This document shows positions 24,477 through 41,500 of a stretch of DNA of 64,000 bases, piece by piece. The number at the start of each line of letters is the position of its first letter. Positions within the stretch are counted from its first letter, which is position 1. Both the position numbers and the translations under genes were made by a program. This DNA is from a virus. The notes under the pieces were generated by a model, which saw nothing but the letters and a program-made list of their open reading frames with translations, did no database searches and was not told the origin of the DNA. The DNA is taken from positions 39,984-103,983 of IMG/VR virus record IMGVR_UViG_3300010389_000003, one strand, 5' to 3'.

Positions 24477-25154
24477 ATGGGAAACATACACCTAGTACAA
24501 ACAGTAGGATTGGGTGATGTGTTTTTTATCCAGAAAATGTGTAATGTATTGTCGGAAAACAACACGGTATACCTGCCAGTGGAAGATAGCACCTGGAGTC
24601 GTGGAGCCAATAGATTGCGTAGCCCTGCTATCATTGCGCCCAAGAGCAATCTTGTAGCAGAAGTTGCAGACGCAGAAAGAATAGATTTGTCATATCAACC
24701 CCAACCTAGGGGTTATGTTGATACTATGACTTCAAAATACGATGGCGTAGGCATTGACTGGAGAGATTGGAGTGATTACTTTCTATACGATCGGGATATA
24801 GAGGCAGAAAAAAGAATAGCAGATCACTATAACGTAGAACCTGGAGACAGATTCATCATATGTAACGAATACTTTTCGTCTGAAGTTCAGGTCAACAGTC
24901 AAGTAAAGAAGGCTTTACCAAAAGAATATGACGGTAAAATTGTGGACCTCGATCCCTATATCCCTGAGACCACCGTTTTTGATTATTGTTGGCTTTTTGA
25001 AAACGCAGAAGAAATTCATACCACAGATACATGTTTCTTATTTATTATAGAAACTTTAAATTTAAATACAGATCGATTAGTGGTTCATTGTAGAAGAAAT
25101 CTTACAAAGGAGACGATCTCACCTTTGTTCACTAAAGTGTGGGAGTGGCATTAG
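24477..25154 (+). CDS. putative glycan-modifying protein (GT-B-like)
   Basis: GLGD N-terminal motif and ENAEEIHTTDTC; cluster context. Confidence 0.55.
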   Translation: MGNIHLVQTVGLGDVFFIQKMCNVLSENNTVYLPVEDSTWSRGANRLRSPAIIAPKSNLVAEVADAERIDLSYQPQPRGYVDTMTSKYDGVGIDWRDWSDYFLYDRDIEAEKRIADHYNVEPGDRFIICNEYFSSEVQVNSQVKKALPKEYDGKIVDLDPYIPETTVFDYCWLFENAEEIHTTDTCFLFIIETLNLNTDRLVVHCRRNLTKETISPLFTKVWEWH

Positions 25155-25155
25155 A

Positions 25156-25647
25156 ATGGAAACAATAGCTTTTGAAGGACAGAATTATCCAGCATTCCAA
25201 GCTAATGGAAACGCCGCGCAGTACATCATGCCTATAGCAAAAGAGTTTTGTTCTGGTTACGGGTATGATATAGGTTGCAATAATGATGAATGGAAAATGC
25301 CAGAAGCAATCCCCATAGACCTAACCTTTGATGACGAATGGGACGCTGCTAATCTTCCTGATGGCAAAGTTGATTACATATTCTCAAGCCATTGTTTAGA
25401 GCACCTGAATAATTGGGTGGAGGCTATAGAATATTGGACCACTAAAATCAAAACGGGTGGTTCTCTTTTCCTCTACTTGCCTAGCTATACTCAAAGATAT
25501 TGGAGACCCTGGAATAATAGAAAGCATAAAAGTATCATGGATCCGCAAGCCATATCCGATCTTATGGTTAACTTAGAATATACAAATATATATCTGAGTG
25601 GTATTGATTTAAATAATTCGTTTTCTATAACAGGAGAGAAGTCTTAA
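25156..25647 (+). CDS. class I SAM-dependent methyltransferase
   Basis: YDIGC, DYIFSSHCLEH, KTGG motifs. Confidence 0.8.
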   Translation: METIAFEGQNYPAFQANGNAAQYIMPIAKEFCSGYGYDIGCNNDEWKMPEAIPIDLTFDDEWDAANLPDGKVDYIFSSHCLEHLNNWVEAIEYWTTKIKTGGSLFLYLPSYTQRYWRPWNNRKHKSIMDPQAISDLMVNLEYTNIYLSGIDLNNSFSITGEKS

Positions 25648-26237
25648 TGGGAGAGCTTAGTAAGGCTATAAATGTAGCTGATGTTTGTAATCATTACGAT
25701 ATAAAGGCTTTTCTAGAAACGGGAACCGGCGATGGTCTTTCTGTTAAATTTGTTGATGATGTGGTATCAGACATAGAGATACATACGATTGAGTTTGTTC
25801 ATGAAATTTTTGAAGAGACCACCAAAAATCTTATGCATGACCACACAAATATAAACTTCCATTTTGGCAGCTCGAAGGATAGACTCAAAGATATCGTTCC
25901 AAACCTTAATGGGAATGTACTTTTTTGGCTTGATGCACATTTCCCCGGGGCAGACTATGGATTAGCGGGATACGGTGACTACAAAGATGACTCTCTCCGA
26001 ATACCCTTAGAGATAGAGCTATCTACCATTTGTGAATTACGCGATGTATCGAATGATGTATTCGTCATGGACGATTTAAGAATCTATGAAGACGGACCAT
26101 TTCAAAGCGGCAATTGGGGAGACAGAAACCATCTTGGTGGAGTTGGTATAGATTTCGTTTATGACCTTTTGGGTGATACACATCGCATAGAAAAGTCTTA
26201 TGTGCAGCAAGGGTTCATTATAGGGTGGCCCATATAG
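25647..26237 (+). CDS. methyltransferase-fold protein
   Basis: FLETGTGDG, TIE, FWLDAH, MDDLR motifs. Confidence 0.7.
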   Translation: MGELSKAINVADVCNHYDIKAFLETGTGDGLSVKFVDDVVSDIEIHTIEFVHEIFEETTKNLMHDHTNINFHFGSSKDRLKDIVPNLNGNVLFWLDAHFPGADYGLAGYGDYKDDSLRIPLEIELSTICELRDVSNDVFVMDDLRIYEDGPFQSGNWGDRNHLGGVGIDFVYDLLGDTHRIEKSYVQQGFIIGWPI

Positions 26238-35415: not shown

Positions 35416-35564
35416 AGCGCAAATGGTTGATAGACAACTTCGATTCTATCTTAGGTGAGATGGAGTACCATAGGGAACACAGTAAGATGTTGAAGCTCAA
35501 ACGTGTTGTCTTGTGGAAACTGAACGATAAAGAGGGAAAGGCGAAACTTGAGACTTCCAAATGA
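35403..35564 (+). CDS. small hypothetical protein (53 aa)
   Basis: GGAGG RBS; MGILERKWLIDNF...; fills the gap before the primase; below the ORF-track cutoff. Confidence 0.6.
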   Translation: MGILERKWLIDNFDSILGEMEYHREHSKMLKLKRVVLWKLNDKEGKAKLETSK

Positions 35565-36765
35565 TAAATCCAAATACAGCAACAATTGGAAGTGGGTTGA
35601 GCTGGGTAGATATGATTCGAATGAAGATAGGGTATTCAGAATCACAGACCAGAAGACAAAGCGACCTATCACTGTTGAGTACCCTGAAGCGGAAAGCTTT
35701 GCTGACAAGCATCAAAGAAATGGAATCTATACCTCCGTATTCCATTACAACAATCCCGACTATGAAAAAGCAACCCGTCTTGGATCTCTGTACTTCGACC
35801 TTGACCATACAGATACAGAAAGATCTCTCAAAGATGCACAAACGTTGGCGGGATACCTATCAGAGTTCCTCGATGAGAGTCAGATAAGAATCTATTTTAC
35901 GGGCATGAAAGGGTTTCACATTGAGTGTGAAGCTTTAGCTATCGGTGTCGTGCCCAGTAACGATCTCCCTTCTATCTTTAGACTTATAGCCAATGACCTC
36001 AAGGATAAACTGGCATTGGAGACCATAGATTTTGCCGTCTATGATGTGCGTCGTATGTGGCGCCTACCCAATACCCGTCATCAAAAGACTGGCCTATATA
36101 AGGTTCATCTTTCCATCGATGACTTGAATTCGGGTTACGAAAACATTCTGGAAATAGCTAAAGAACCAGTAGAGTTTTATGTTCCAGAACAAGAGTTTTC
36201 CTATGCTGGTAATAGATGGTATAAGGAGTATGAGTACACATACGAGAAGTCGAAACTGAACCAGAACAATGTCGACGACATGATAGATCTGTTTCGTAAA
36301 AACGGAACCGCTGGTGTCAGAGTATCTGAACAGAAAGACTTCAACCCTGTGAATCTTTTCGATAACTGTAAGGCAATTCTAAGATTATGGGAAAAAGCAG
36401 AATCGACAGGGCATTTAGAGCATGAAGAAAGACTGTTTCTATGCAGCATTCTAACCTACACAGATGAGTCAATTGAATACCTGCATATGATTCTAGGCAA
36501 TTGTCATGATTACAATTACGAGAAGTCCTCTTCCCATATAGATGACTGGTTGGCGCGAAGAAGAATGGGTATTGGTGGAAGACCATATACCTGTCGTAGA
36601 GCCAATGAGGTGGGGGTGGGGTGCCTAGGATGTGAACTTACCCCAAAAAAGAAGTACTACAAAGTGAATGGCGTTCTTATAGAGTCTGAAGAATATAGTG
36701 ACCCATCTCCAATTAGATTTGCATACGGTAACAATGATTATAATAACTCAAAAAATAAAAGATAG
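35548..36765 (+). CDS. archaeo-eukaryotic-type primase with PriL-like Cys C-terminal domain
   Basis: YFDLD, FTGMKGFH, D.AVY..RRMWRLPNT motifs; C-terminal NCKAI..HLEHEER..PYTC..GC.GC. Confidence 0.82.
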   Translation: MRLPNDKSKYSNNWKWVELGRYDSNEDRVFRITDQKTKRPITVEYPEAESFADKHQRNGIYTSVFHYNNPDYEKATRLGSLYFDLDHTDTERSLKDAQTLAGYLSEFLDESQIRIYFTGMKGFHIECEALAIGVVPSNDLPSIFRLIANDLKDKLALETIDFAVYDVRRMWRLPNTRHQKTGLYKVHLSIDDLNSGYENILEIAKEPVEFYVPEQEFSYAGNRWYKEYEYTYEKSKLNQNNVDDMIDLFRKNGTAGVRVSEQKDFNPVNLFDNCKAILRLWEKAESTGHLEHEERLFLCSILTYTDESIEYLHMILGNCHDYNYEKSSSHIDDWLARRRMGIGGRPYTCRRANEVGVGCLGCELTPKKKYYKVNGVLIESEEYSDPSPIRFAYGNNDYNNSKNKR

Positions 36766-37468
36766 ATTTGAATCTAATTTAGATAAAACAGATACGTGTT
36801 GGATATGGCAACGTGCATGCAATACTGTCACCGGATATGCTGTTGTTAGTATTGAAAAAAAACAATATCAGGCACGCGATGTTGCGTATCATATATGGAA
36901 GAATGGTCTTCAAAGTTTTGAAACAACAAAGCTTGAGTGCGGTAATAGACGATGTGTTAATCCTGATCATATGAGTATTGTTTTAAAGAGAGGATCTAAA
37001 AACAAAAACAGAAAATTAGGAGAAGATAAATGGTGTCCTAGCTGTGATACATTTTTGCCCGTACAAAACTTCTCTGAGGATTCTCATAAGGCGGATGGGC
37101 TAAGGGTTTACTGTAAGGCCTGTAATGTCTTACGAGTTCAGAACTATCAATACGACAATGCACATTATAAAATGAGGTCTCGTGATAGTTATTTAAAATC
37201 AAAATATAATATCGGCTTAGAGCAATATAATAAGATACTAGATTCACAGAATGACACATGCGCCATATGTCAAAAGCCTGAACAGTGGACAAAGAGTTTG
37301 TGTGTAGACCATGATCACACATGCTGTGGGGGGTCCGGATCATGTGGGAATTGTATTAGGGGACTGCTTTGCTCTCGGTGTAATACTGTTTTGGGTCAAG
37401 TAGAAGATAATATCGATATTTTTATTTTTATGATTGAATATATACAAAAACACAAATTAAATAAATAA
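36614..37468 (+). mobile_element. free-standing homing endonuclease cassette carrying a replacement primase 3' end
   Basis: Removing 36614-37468 rejoins G|GT GTG GGA TGC in frame to the stranded C-terminus; the insert is visibly AT-rich. Confidence 0.8.
36734..37468 (+). CDS. homing endonuclease: degenerate HNH_3-like domain, Zn finger and endonuclease VII domain
   Basis: CWIW..GY..CVNPDH; CPSC..CKAC; CAIC..VDHDH..RGLLCSRCN..LG. Confidence 0.85.
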   Translation: MIIITQKIKDRFESNLDKTDTCWIWQRACNTVTGYAVVSIEKKQYQARDVAYHIWKNGLQSFETTKLECGNRRCVNPDHMSIVLKRGSKNKNRKLGEDKWCPSCDTFLPVQNFSEDSHKADGLRVYCKACNVLRVQNYQYDNAHYKMRSRDSYLKSKYNIGLEQYNKILDSQNDTCAICQKPEQWTKSLCVDHDHTCCGGSGSCGNCIRGLLCSRCNTVLGQVEDNIDIFIFMIEYIQKHKLNK

Positions 37469-37608
37469 GTGTGGGATGCGGCGATTGCAGTCTTGAACCT
37501 AAGAAAAAATGGGTAAAAGTAGGCGACATGTATGTCGAGTCAGATGAATTTACTGACCCTTCACCTATAAGGTTCGCATATGGTGGCGTTACTAGTAATA
37601 ACGAATAG
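37469..37608 (+). pseudogene. displaced original 3' end of the primase gene
   Basis: Encodes VGCGDCSLEPKKKWVKVGDMYVESDEFTDPSPIRFAYGGVTSNNE*; 24 of 38 aligned residues identical to the current primase C-terminus. Confidence 0.9.
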
Positions 37609-37626
37609 TATTATTAGGAGGCTATT

Positions 37627-37746
37627 ATGGCTAAAAAGACTGGTGTTTACGCCGGTGTCAAAACCGCAAAGCCAAATTTCGTCAGCGGAGACAAATCGGG
37701 CTCCGTGAAACAGCGCACGGCTAAAGGCCCAATGAAGGGCAAGTAA
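37627..37746 (+). CDS. tiny Lys/Gly-rich peptide (39 aa)
   Basis: AGGAGG RBS; MAKKTGVYAGVKTAKPNFVSGDKSGSVKQRTAKGPMKGK. Confidence 0.7.
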   Translation: MAKKTGVYAGVKTAKPNFVSGDKSGSVKQRTAKGPMKGK

Positions 37747-37748
37747 TC

Positions 37749-37808
37749 ATGTCTTATGCACCTTCGCGCAAAGTAAAAAAGAAGAAGAAAAAAGGGGATA
37801 AAAAATGA
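37749..37808 (+). CDS. tiny poly-Lys peptide (19 aa)
   Basis: MSYAPSRKVKKKKKKGDKK; starts 2 nt after the previous stop; ATGA overlap with the next gene. Confidence 0.5.
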   Translation: MSYAPSRKVKKKKKKGDKK

Positions 37809-37999
37809 CCATTGAGACCAGGCTCGTGACTCGCCGCGGCAAAAAGATCCAGGACAAGGGGCACGAACGTTATGCTCCGAAGTCAAGCTCAGCTAAACAA
37901 CCCGCACACGCTCCAATTCCGGAGAAGAAAGAGGCTAAGGTTGAAGCAGATACCGCTAAGGCTAAGAAGCAAACCAGCAAAAAGAAAAAAGCAGACTAA
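37805..37999 (+). CDS. small Lys/Ala-rich basic protein
   Basis: 64 aa; histone-H1-like composition. Confidence 0.65.
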   Translation: MTIETRLVTRRGKKIQDKGHERYAPKSSSAKQPAHAPIPEKKEAKVEADTAKAKKQTSKKKKAD

Positions 38000-38019
38000 A
38001 GACAAAAGGGAAGTAGACT

Positions 38020-38232
38020 ATGAGTGAAGAACTAGATCATAATATTGTAGGCATGTGTACAGAATGCAAGACCACCATTCCAACGACAACCATGGCCAAG
38101 AACATTTTTGCATCGGAGGGTGCCCCTCCAGTATGTAAGTATTGCGGTGGAGTTGTTGCGGTTATTGATCGGCGTGATGAGAAGTCTGTCAAGGTTCAAA
38201 TGGACGCGGCACGCAACCTCAATAGGGGCTGA
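38020..38232 (+). CDS. small zinc-ribbon protein
   Basis: CTEC...CKYC. Confidence 0.65.
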   Translation: MSEELDHNIVGMCTECKTTIPTTTMAKNIFASEGAPPVCKYCGGVVAVIDRRDEKSVKVQMDAARNLNRG

Positions 38233-38260: not shown

Positions 38261-38554
38261 GTGGCTTTCAGCGATGAGATCTCAATGCACAATCAATCAC
38301 GGCTTGACGGTAACACGTTGATAACCACCACGCACGTATATCTAAATGGCGAATTGTATGATCCAGTTGAGGTCACATTTTCCTTACGTTATCGCGATGC
38401 CCTCACCCGAAGGACCTTCTTAACCCAAACGAAGAAAGACACTTCAGATGATGCCGTGACCAGGCTTTCTATTGGGCTATATGAGTACAGAGAGGACGTC
38501 TCCAATTACCTTACCGGTAAGTACGATGTGGTTTGTAGTGTATCCGATAGCTAA
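38261..38554 (+). CDS. hypothetical beta-rich protein
   Basis: 97-aa ORF. Confidence 0.55.
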   Translation: MAFSDEISMHNQSRLDGNTLITTTHVYLNGELYDPVEVTFSLRYRDALTRRTFLTQTKKDTSDDAVTRLSIGLYEYREDVSNYLTGKYDVVCSVSDS

Positions 38555-38591: not shown

Positions 38592-41500
38592 ATGGCAAAA
38601 CAATATGTAGAACTCCATTGTCATGATGTCTTCAGCTTCTTGGATGGGCATGGCAAGGTAGAGGAATATAGTCGTCGCGCTAAAGAACTCAATATGGGAG
38701 CCATAGCGCAGACAAATCATGGAAATATCCATGGATGGATGGACTTCTATGATAGCTGCAAGAAGCACGACCTAAAACCCATCTTCGGCCTTGAAGCATA
38801 CCAGGCCCGTAAGAGTCGATTCGATAAAGATGATGACGAGCGTGCTGGCCCCGCAAGAAATGAGTGGGATCAGCGTGGGCCGTACCACATAACCCTCTTG
38901 GCTAAGAACAAGACGGGTTATCATAACCTCATCAAGCTGTCCTCCCGTGCCTATACCGAGGGCTTCTATGTCAAGCCACGCATGGATCACGAATTGATCT
39001 CAGAGCATTCAGAAGGGCTTATAGTGATGTCTGGCTGCCTCAATGGGGAAGTGCAACAGGCGATCCTGCGCAACGATTACAAATCAGCCTTAATCGCTGC
39101 CGCCAGCATGCAAACGATTGTGGGCAAAGAAAACTACTTTATCGAAGTGCATGATCATGGGATTGAAGAAGAGCGCGCGGTCAGAGAGGCCCTTATTAGA
39201 ATAGCTAAGACAATTGATGCCCCTATTGTCCCCGTGGGTGATTGTCACTATGTATACAAGGACGATCACGACGCACACGATTCCATGTTATGCGTTTCAA
39301 CTAAGGCTCAGATCTCCTCAGAAGAACGTTTCAAGTTCTCCGGTCCCGAATTTTATCTAAAGTCCTACGAAGAAGTGGTAGAAAAGTTCGATCCAGATTG
39401 GGTCAAGAATACACTGCATGTAGCAGATATGGTTGATGTAAAGCTTGAATTTGGCGAATATCATTTCCCTCAGGCTCAAAACATTCCAGAAAACATTTCC
39501 GTTGATGAGCACCTAGAGACCCTCATGTGGGATGGTTTGCGGGAAAGATACGGAGATCCACTCCCTCAAGAGGTTATAGATCGTGCTTCTCACGAGCTGG
39601 GCGTGGTCAAAAGAATGGGTTTCCAGGAGTATTTCCTGGTCGTTTCCGACATAGTACAAGAGGCCAAGCGTAGAGGGATAGCGGTCGGCCCAGGAAGAGG
39701 TTCCGGTGCCGCCTGTATCATATCCTATGCATTGCGCATCACAAACCTGTGCCCGATTGAGTATGATCTTCTCTTTGAGCGCTTCTTGATTGAGGGGCGA
39801 AAGACCGTACCCGACTTCGATATCGACTTCGACGATCGCTACAGAGATGAGATCATTGAGTATTGTCGTGAGAAGTATGGAAGTGATCATGTTGCCCATA
39901 TTGCTACTTTCGCCCAAGTAAAAGCTGCATCTGCCATTAAGGACGCCGCCCGTGTGCTCGGTCACGAGTACGAAGTTGGGGATCGTATAGCGAAGATGAT
40001 ACCTGATGCCGTCTTAGGTGTGACCAAGTCCCTTGAAGAATGCATGAAGCTGGAAGATATCAAGAAGGTCTACGAGACCGATGATGATGTCAAAGAGATC
40101 CTGGATGTTGCGATAGGCCTTGAGGGCGTTTACAGACAGCCGGGCATGCACGCCGCTGGTGTAGTGATCACTCGTGGCCCCGTAACAGACTATGTCCCCA
40201 CAATGCAGAAGGGTGCTGATAAGCCACTGATTATACAGTGGGATGGTGACAATGTAGAACGGAACGGTCTTCTGAAGATAGACTTCTTAGGCTTGCGGAA
40301 CCTCGGTGTCATAGACCTGTGTGTCAAGCAGGTCAAGGTGCGTCATGGTGTAGATTTAGACATAGATAATATACCGCTTAATGATGAGCAGGTATTTGAG
40401 AACCTTAGACAAGGTAAGTCTATAGGCTGCTTCCAGATAGAGGGCGAGGGTATGCGTCAGATGATGATGGACCTTCAGCCTGAAAGCATCTTGGATATCT
40501 TTGCTCTGATATCACTGTATCGTCCCGGGCCAATGGGTTCCGGTATGGATAAGATGTATATCAATCGTAAGCATGGTCGAGAGAAGGTATCGTATCCACA
40601 CGAATCATTGAGACCGGTCCTCGAAAAGTCTAGGGGCATCATGCTCTACCAGGAGGACGTACTTAATGTTGCGAAAGTTGGCGCAGGGTTAGGCCCAGGC
40701 GATGCTGATGATCTCCGTCGAGTTATCGGCAAGAAGTATATGGACAAGGTGGCAGAGTATAGAAAGATATTCGTAGAGGGGGCCGTGAAAACCAATGGCA
40801 TGTCTGAAAAAATTGCCAACGATATCTTCTCTGATATCGAATACTTTGCGGGTTACGGTTTCAATAAGGCACACGCCGCTGCTTATGGGATCATTTCTTA
40901 TCAGACGGCATGGCTAAAAACACATTATCCAGTTGAGTACATGGCAGCCTTGATGTCAACAGTGACAGACAAGAAAGATAAGATGAACCTTTATCTCGCC
41001 GAATGCAAAAATATGGGTATAGAAGTATTGCCACCTTCGGTTTCAGAATCACAGTATTACTTCACGGTTAGGGACGATACTACAATACTCTTCGGATTGC
41101 TTGCGGTGGATGGTGTTGGTGAGGCTCAGATCGACCACCTTAAGAGTGGGAACGTAGACTATAGCAGCTTCTGGACATTTTTCAGAACCGCTGAATCAAG
41201 CGCATTAAACAAGAAGACCCTTCAGCAGCTTATCAATGCTGGCGGCTTCGATAACCTGGTTGATACGGACAGCTTAGTGCATAAGTCTATGTCGCGATCG
41301 GAGAAGGTCGAGATTCTGAATAGGGAGAACGCTGCTATAGGAATGTACCTGTCTGGTCACCCGCTTGAGGACATATGGCCAGTCATCAAAGATCAAGCAA
41401 CACACACCTGCGCTGAGGTTATGGAAAGCGAGGAGGGCAAGGGTTCTGCCAGAGTGGTCGGAATGATAACTGAATACAAAGAGATGACGACCAAGAAGAC

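Follow-up and report, generated by a model that had tools for sequence, protein, structure and literature searches.

A putative homing-endonuclease cassette that carries a replacement gene end within a phage primase gene

The DNA analysed here, called the window throughout, is a stretch of 64,000 nucleotides (positions 39,984 to 103,983) of IMGVR_UViG_3300010389_000003, a 104-kb viral record in IMG/VR for which CheckV estimates a completeness of ~49%. This analysis concerns one locus in the replication module of the window, where the gene for a primase runs into the gene for a free-standing endonuclease, which in turn is followed by a second copy of the primase gene's own 3′ end. A previous reading of the letters alone, hereafter the sequence-only reading, had proposed that a homing endonuclease cassette replaced the 3′ end of the primase gene and left the original C-terminus stranded downstream. 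The features of the locus, in window coordinates and with tail origins as we read them, are the following:

35548-36765, plus strand: primase open reading frame (ORF), 405 aa, with the same TTG start as in its relatives
35548-36613, plus strand: apparently native primase body (residues 1-355), comprising an N-terminal catalytic domain that is of the archaeo-eukaryotic primase (AEP) type and most of a helical, Cys-rich C-terminal domain
36614-36765, plus strand: putatively imported replacement tail, the last ~47-50 primase codons as now translated, with a TAG stop at 36763-36765
36734-37468, plus strand: free-standing endonuclease gene, 244 aa, intact, with a TAA stop
37469-37608, plus strand: stranded native tail, 46 codons in the primase frame, with a TAG stop at 37606-37608
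37609-37746, plus strand: unchanged downstream flank, which aligns to the DNA downstream of the single primase stop in the closest relative (L001)

The joints between these features are tight. The ORF listing puts the endonuclease start at a GTG at 36698; we adopted the ATG at 36734, from which the homologues align. As had been noticed before, this ATG overlaps the new tail: the endonuclease gene shares 32 nt with the primase gene's end and is read in the +1 frame. At the other end, the stranded tail begins 0 nt after the endonuclease stop codon, which ends at 37468, and it has no ribosome-binding site of its own. The second tail that the sequence-only reading placed there is present and can be read in the primase frame from 37469/37471. 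Joining 36613 to 37469, which removes 36614-37468 (855 bp, or 3 × 285), yields an open and family-typical primase gene of 401 codons, and the proposed restoration of an in-frame gene by this deletion therefore holds. The left boundary of the insert is ambiguous within 36614-36624, where the two copies are near-identical over 11 nt (9/11). The tail that is now translated contains a CxxC pair, a β-hairpin and a PSPIRFAY motif.

The composition of the insert sets it apart from its surroundings. Its GC content of 0.356, against a window mean of 0.449 (standard deviation 0.029), is the lowest of all 855-nt stretches in the 64 kb, which bears out its earlier description as AT-rich. The endonuclease gene has a GC content of 0.346 and of 0.278 at third codon positions (GC3), and the replacement tail is contiguous with this low-GC insert. 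The downstream flank is made up of an intergenic AGGAGG ribosome-binding site (37617-37622) and the first of the small Lys-rich genes (37627-37746); judged by its alignment, it would serve as the right-hand homology arm that the locus has in common with empty alleles.

The two tails are homologous, and their DNA is diverged, as had been claimed. Identical residues occupy 24 of the 38 aligned positions (26/44 by BLASTP, E = 1e-19), and the DNA agrees at 70 of 114 nt, with third codon positions agreeing at 13/38. A repeat search recovers a 66-nt direct repeat at 71% identity and a spacing of exactly 855, and homology between the tails extends to 36747/37602. For comparison we surveyed 87 relatives of the primase, which have 68 distinct tails among them. 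The closest is L001, the sole relative with more than 60% primase identity in what is a thinly sampled clade. L001 is an empty allele: it has a single tail, no endonuclease and the same flanks, and its primase is 80% identical over the full length. After its primase stop, the DNA of L001 is collinear with the window DNA downstream of the stranded tail, and its single tail aligns to the stranded copy and not to the current one, as the sequence-only reading had anticipated for empty alleles.

Comparison with L001 also indicates which of the two tails is native. The primase body is identical to that of L001 at 295/356 residues (83%), with a proportion of non-synonymous differences (pN) of 0.111, and the last 60 residues before the junction are identical at 57/60. 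For the stranded tail the figures are 33/38 residues and a pN of 0.117, and for the current tail 23/38 residues and a pN of 0.325, with values of 0.27-0.33 for the current tail across the comparisons with L001 and the stranded copy. The two tails thus differ in their similarity to L001, both in residues (Fisher p = 0.018) and in non-synonymous changes (p = 0.0005), while synonymous sites are saturated in every comparison (proportion of synonymous differences, pS, about 0.8-0.9; 0.83 between the two copies). Because the stranded tail has the pN of the body and that of the current tail is ~3 times higher, the downstream copy is the native tail, and the copy now in frame appears to have arrived with the AT-rich endonuclease gene. 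This supports the claim that the cassette replaced the 3′ end of the primase gene. Furthermore, a pN in the stranded tail close to that of the body, at saturated synonymous sites, implies that selection at the protein level acted on this tail during nearly the entire period after the window and L001 parted, and its displacement is consequently recent.

The wider family gives the same picture. Measured against the 68 distinct tails, the stranded copy is a typical member, with a mean of 24.8/38 and one novel residue. The current copy is an outlier, with a mean of 19/38 and five residues unseen at those columns, and nonetheless retains every family-invariant position. All 87 relatives have a single tail, and endonuclease-free relatives with two tails, which the sequence-only reading had named as evidence against itself, number 0/87.

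The endonuclease consists of an HNH/His-Me-like N-terminal domain (residues 5-93), a zinc ribbon (about 100-135) and a C-terminal Endo VII/DHHRN domain (154-238), in keeping with its earlier description as a hybrid of a degenerate HNH-like domain, a zinc motif and an Endo VII domain. The C-terminal domain matches PF02945 (E = 4e-22) and Endo VII families of PHROG (E = 2e-32). Residues 10-70 of T4 Endo VII (1e7d) align with it (E = 4e-6), with CxxC, DHDH, R and CxxC-N all conserved; in the alignment these stretches read CAIC, DHDH, IRGLLC and CSRCN. The DHHRN motif, CX2-4C...DHDH...R...CX2C-N, was defined on F-CphI and comprises C23/C26, D40, H41, H43, R54, C58/C61 and N62 of T4 Endo VII (PMC6083498). 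Homing endonucleases with this motif form a clade distinct from that of the resolvases, in which the motif is C-terminal and is preceded by an N-terminal DNA-binding part (PMC6083498). The window enzyme, with its motif at residues 154-238 of 244, matches the endonuclease clade by motif position. From its full set of catalytic and zinc residues, the nuclease is predicted to be intact and to belong to the Endo VII-motif (DHHRN, F-CphI) homing endonucleases.

The N-terminal domain is of a different kind. Over residues 5-93 the protein matches HNH families from phages (PHROG, E values as low as 2.5e-14) and lacks the catalytic His: the homologues have AHR...H-x-CDN, and the window protein has ARD...E-x-CGN, with Glu replacing His. 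By these residues the domain appears to be catalytically dead, and it probably binds DNA; a CxxC...CxxC ribbon connects it to the Endo VII domain. The 32-nt overlap with the primase gene and the lack of a clear ribosome-binding site suggest that expression of the endonuclease is low and translationally coupled, by analogy with several seg/mob genes of T4. The gene is the only one of its kind in the 104-kb record and forms a presence/absence polymorphism: L001 and 85 further relatives lack it at a locus that is conserved in other respects.

The interrupted gene encodes a protein that its predicted structure places in the AEP superfamily. The AlphaFold model (pLDDT 86.6) has an N-terminal AEP fold, and Foldseek matches it to LigD-pol, RepB′, PriS and PrimPol at E values of 3e-5 to 1e-3. 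At the level of sequence, the match to PF01896 is weak and that to a PHROG primase family is stronger (E = 3.5e-31), and D84, D86 and H124 are invariant in 40 primase sequences. A separate model of the C-terminal domain (residues 262-405, window 36331-36765; pLDDT 86.9) is helical and ends in the CxxC pair, the β-hairpin and a short helix. The top Foldseek matches of this domain are the Fe-S domains of yeast, Xenopus and human PriL together with PriX, weak at E values of 0.4-4. VIA returns 6di2 at Z 6.8 (root-mean-square deviation 4.6, 110 residues aligned), human PRIM2C at Z 5.2, PriX at Z 5.0 and photolyases at Z 5-7, all of which are below the noise level for helical domains. The modest resemblance includes the helical domain of the photolyase/cryptochrome family, and photolyases are structural relatives of the PriL C-terminal domain. 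A profile search of solved structures with the C-terminal domain gave chance-level matches only.

The C-terminal domain has five invariant cysteines (C274, C299, C349, C359 and C362), of which C349 and C359 flank the junction. The conservation of the five suggests that this phage AEP primase, which is a single chain, has a site for a metal or an Fe-S cluster, and the model makes a PriL-like Fe-S domain at the primase C-terminus plausible. The sequence-only reading had placed the junction among the putative Fe-S cysteines of an AEP/PriL-like primase. Its position between two invariant cysteines and the AEP fold stand, and the Fe-S assignment is now put as plausible only, given PriL matches that lie within noise.

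At the DNA level, the junction lies in the block that codes for GIGGRPYTC-RAN-GVGCGxC, which is among the most conserved DNA in the 3′ part of the gene (1.38 bits/nt, with a maximum of 1.56). Conserved coding blocks are the type of sequence usually recognised by homing endonucleases. A second nuclease occurs at the same place in a distant relative (L044, contig JACCDG012068804.1, primase 53% identical): an Endo VII gene (PF02945, E = 1e-23), whose product is 28% identical to the window enzyme, starts 7 nt after the primase stop, with no tail duplication. Because this gene sits at the same gene boundary, the 3′ boundary of the primase gene is a recurrent landing site for Endo VII nucleases, and the primase is a less unusual target than the sequence-only reading had supposed. 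The replication module of L044 contains two free-standing nuclease genes in all, neither with a duplicated gene end, namely the Endo VII-type gene after the primase and a classical HNH gene (PF01844) just before DNA polymerase III alpha (L044:3735-4250 and L044:5367-5930).

Taken as a whole, the locus is very probably the site of an 855-bp mobile cassette in the 3′ part of the primase gene, composed of a foreign, diverged tail and an overlapping, free-standing Endo VII-motif homing endonuclease. The first 14 nt of the endonuclease gene are homologous to the end of the stranded tail and are thus derived from a primase gene, so the endonuclease gene would already have been built onto a primase 3′ end before transfer. 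We infer a donor phage of the same subclade, in which the endonuclease gene would have stood at the very end of the primase gene and overlapped its last codons. During co-infection, the enzyme would have cleaved a primase allele that had no endonuclease gene, within or close to the conserved block that codes for GVGCGxC. The break would then have been repaired from the donor, with the left crossover in the shared Gly-Val-Gly-Cys codons. The right end would have been joined directly, that is illegitimately, at the broken end, so that the donor tail and the endonuclease gene were copied and the tail of the recipient was pushed downstream. With the cassette supplying a functional tail (CxxC, β-hairpin and PSPIRFAY), the primase would stay full length and the old tail would go untranslated. 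The target in the occupied allele is interrupted and its 3′ half is ~50% diverged, and this would presumably prevent the enzyme from cutting its own allele.

Several observations weigh against this interpretation. There is only one occupied allele among 88, and no donor allele was found in IMG/VR, metagenome contigs or protein libraries. A pattern search of IMG/VR with the tail peptide gave zero matches, and a word-indexed search with residues 352-405 returned only the query itself. The closest tail by phmmer against 1.84 billion protein representatives is 61% identical, and the best homologue of the endonuclease is 36-39% identical over the C-terminal 60%, with none above 40% for the N-terminal domain. 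In addition, the current tail has subclade-specific residues (PKKK, DPSP and AYG....NN) in common with the stranded tail and that of L001, and these sequences do not fully tell a distant donor apart from rapid change in the current tail following the event. With a single occupied allele and no donor, tail and nuclease may never have moved repeatedly as a unit, and the structure may be the scar of a single repair event.

Such a scar is the alternative that survives best, although we consider it possible and no more. In that event, an endonuclease gene that is normally intergenic and follows the primase gene would have been copied in once with an illegitimate right join; the tail duplication would be accidental, and the unit would not propagate. 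The single occupied allele fits this account, as do the intergenic arrangement without duplication in L044 and the lack of a second copy in the 104-kb record. However, homology arms are present on both sides (the primase body on the left; the stranded tail and downstream genes on the right), so any active enzyme would move the whole unit, and identical architectures are recurrent and mobile in fungal mitochondria. A repair scar and a mobile cassette differ on present mobility alone, and not on the origin of the structure.

In-situ tandem duplication of the primase 3′ end, with the endonuclease gene inserted later between the copies, would make both tails native. The spacing of exactly 855 nt, in frame, and the subclade-specific residues found in both tails are consistent with a duplication of this kind. 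It predicts, however, that the untranslated copy should decay, and the reverse is seen, with 33/38 residues and one novel residue in the stranded copy and 23/38 residues and five novel ones in the current copy. Although pS between the copies has reached 0.83, the untranslated copy has no stop, no frameshift and no excess of replacements. The current tail, moreover, is contiguous with a compositionally foreign segment. We therefore regard an in-situ duplication as very improbable.

A self-splicing element, either a group I or group II intron with an endonuclease ORF or an intein, would allow the mature primase to use the downstream tail. In favour of such an element, the insert length is divisible by three, the downstream tail continues the primase frame, and introns of other phages often encode nucleases with the Endo VII motif (PMC6083498). 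Even so, a search of both strands of 36000-38200 gave no Rfam match at a threshold as loose as E ≤ 1. The stranded tail follows the endonuclease stop with 0 nt in between, and the 120 nt ahead of the ATG code for an entire tail of the family type, closed by a stop, so the insert has no non-coding space and hence no room for a ribozyme core. An intein is excluded by the stop at 36763-36765 and the +1 frame of the nuclease, and an intron is, on these features, very unlikely; the element was accordingly right to be called splicing-free, and splicing in any form has only a slight chance of being the explanation. The sequence-only reading had also allowed for a misassembly of two strains, but although the record is a metagenome-derived viral contig, a chimera of co-occurring strains with different primase tails is implausible, given that the longest exact word common to both tail regions is 7 nt and offers no k-mer bridge, that the endonuclease stop abuts the Gly-Val-Gly-Cys codons at the right junction, an unlikely spot for sequence shared between strains, and that both flanks are collinear with L001.

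With regard to the source, the phage is likely large (~200 kb by the CheckV estimate) and of freshwater type. The relatives of the primase come from freshwater and estuarine metagenomes, on contigs that reach about 200 kb, and the source is for that reason probably a jumbo phage. Compared as DNA with 50,697 phage records, the locus gave zero matches, and in a protein search of the same records the matches were limited to the AEP domain of distant primases. The replication module that holds the cassette runs in the order DnaB-like helicase, two ORFs (of which one weakly matches an HD domain), primase, small basic proteins, zinc-ribbon protein and DNA polymerase III alpha. A variable spot in this otherwise collinear module is the ORF that separates the zinc-ribbon gene from DNA polymerase III alpha: it has 97 aa in the window (38261-38554) and 283 aa in L001 (L001:5854-6705), and the two share their C-terminal sequence.

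Just after the stranded tail, an operon of tiny Lys-rich ORFs (39 and 64 aa) begins, in window 37588-37999. A promoter motif that had been proposed inside the stranded tail, GTTACTAG, has 1 exact occurrence in the 64 kb against 1.2 expected, and we rejected it as a recurrent promoter motif in the form of an exact word. Scans for promoters and terminators gave counts not above those of shuffled sequence. The second-lowest GC content of any 855-nt stretch (0.361) belongs to 25001-25855, which covers the ORFs at 25156-25647 and 25647-26237 and is possibly a further horizontally acquired segment.

The architecture itself is known from fungal mitochondria, and what is new here is the class of host, the nuclease family and the target. 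Gene hybrids with mobile endonuclease ORFs (mORFs) have been described for atp6 of Allomyces macrogynus, for atp6, atp9, cox2 and nad3 of Glomus sp., for atp9 of Rhizopus and for cox2 of Mortierella (PMC3630166 and works cited there). Like the cassette in the window, these have an endonuclease ORF inside the 3′ part of an essential gene and a foreign copy of the C-terminal part in frame, and they need no splicing (PMC3630166). In both cases the displaced native C-terminus is nearer to relatives than the copy in frame, by 91-98% against 64-81% of nucleotides for the mORFs and by 33/38 against 23/38 residues in the window (PMC3630166). The two differ in that the host here is a double-stranded DNA phage and not an organelle, and in that the target is an AEP primase. 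The nucleases differ as well: the window enzyme is of the Endo VII-motif/HNH superfamily and its ORF overlaps the carried tail out of frame, whereas those of the mORFs are LAGLIDADG or GIY-YIG enzymes, fused in phase or separate. Mobility and hybrid transcripts have been demonstrated for the fungal elements, whereas for the window cassette they are predictions.

Among phage enzymes, F-CphI (ORF177 of cyanophage S-PM2) has the same C-terminal motif of CxxC, DHDH, R and CxxC-N and is likewise encoded by a free-standing gene that adjoins a conserved essential gene (PMC6083498). In contrast to the window enzyme, F-CphI has psbA, beside a group I intron, as its target and carries no gene end (PMC6083498). 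Similarity between the two is confined to the catalytic motif, to which the window enzyme adds an apparently dead HNH-like N-terminal domain and a zinc ribbon. The seg/mob endonucleases of T4 are also encoded by free-standing genes at the boundaries of conserved replication genes, and, as would be expected for the window cassette, they spread by double-strand-break repair with co-conversion of the flanks (PMC2988022). Several of them overlap the end of the upstream gene and have no ribosome-binding site of their own, by 20 bp in segC, 11 bp in segF, 23 bp in mobA and 24 bp in mobC, compared with 32 nt in the window (PMC2988022). Unlike the window cassette, the T4-type examples lie between genes or break up the host gene so that two polypeptides result, as with mobE in nrdA of Aeh1 and mobA in gene 39/60, and this review of intron-less homing contains no case of a carried replacement gene end (PMC2988022).

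The mobA/gene 60 cassette resembles the window cassette in that a homing endonuclease gene moves together with an accessory sequence through which insertion into a gene can be tolerated. In 2011, Bonocora et al. reportedly described a single mobile cassette made up of mobA and the translational-bypass element (50 nt) of T4 gene 60; a related preprint exists (10.1101/2022.08.31.505936). The accessory sequence in that cassette is an RNA signal for bypass and the host gene is left in two parts, whereas in the window the accessory is a spare coding end. In the phage literature that we searched there are free-standing endonucleases between genes, genes that are split and the mobA bypass cassette, and we found no carried gene end in it.

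The locus offers a phage example, complete with an empty allele, of how a homing endonuclease may reside inside an essential gene without an intron or intein, by means of a spare gene end. For genome annotation, cassettes of this type would yield orphan fragments of gene ends and chimeric genes, both of which are easy to misread. For phage evolution, they would transfer functional parts of proteins from one phage to another, in this case the Cys-rich primase end, and the enzyme itself is a candidate for a new specificity among the Endo VII-motif homing endonucleases, a family that has received little study. More tentatively, tail-carrying "home-and-rescue" endonuclease cassettes may be an active and general class of mobile element in large phages, of which the Endo VII-motif enzyme overwriting the cysteine-bearing C-terminal segment of an essential primase would be one instance; at present we think this generalisation rather unlikely. 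If it is true, homing endonucleases would be a routine vehicle for swapping the functional ends of replication proteins between co-infecting phages, with neither introns nor inteins.

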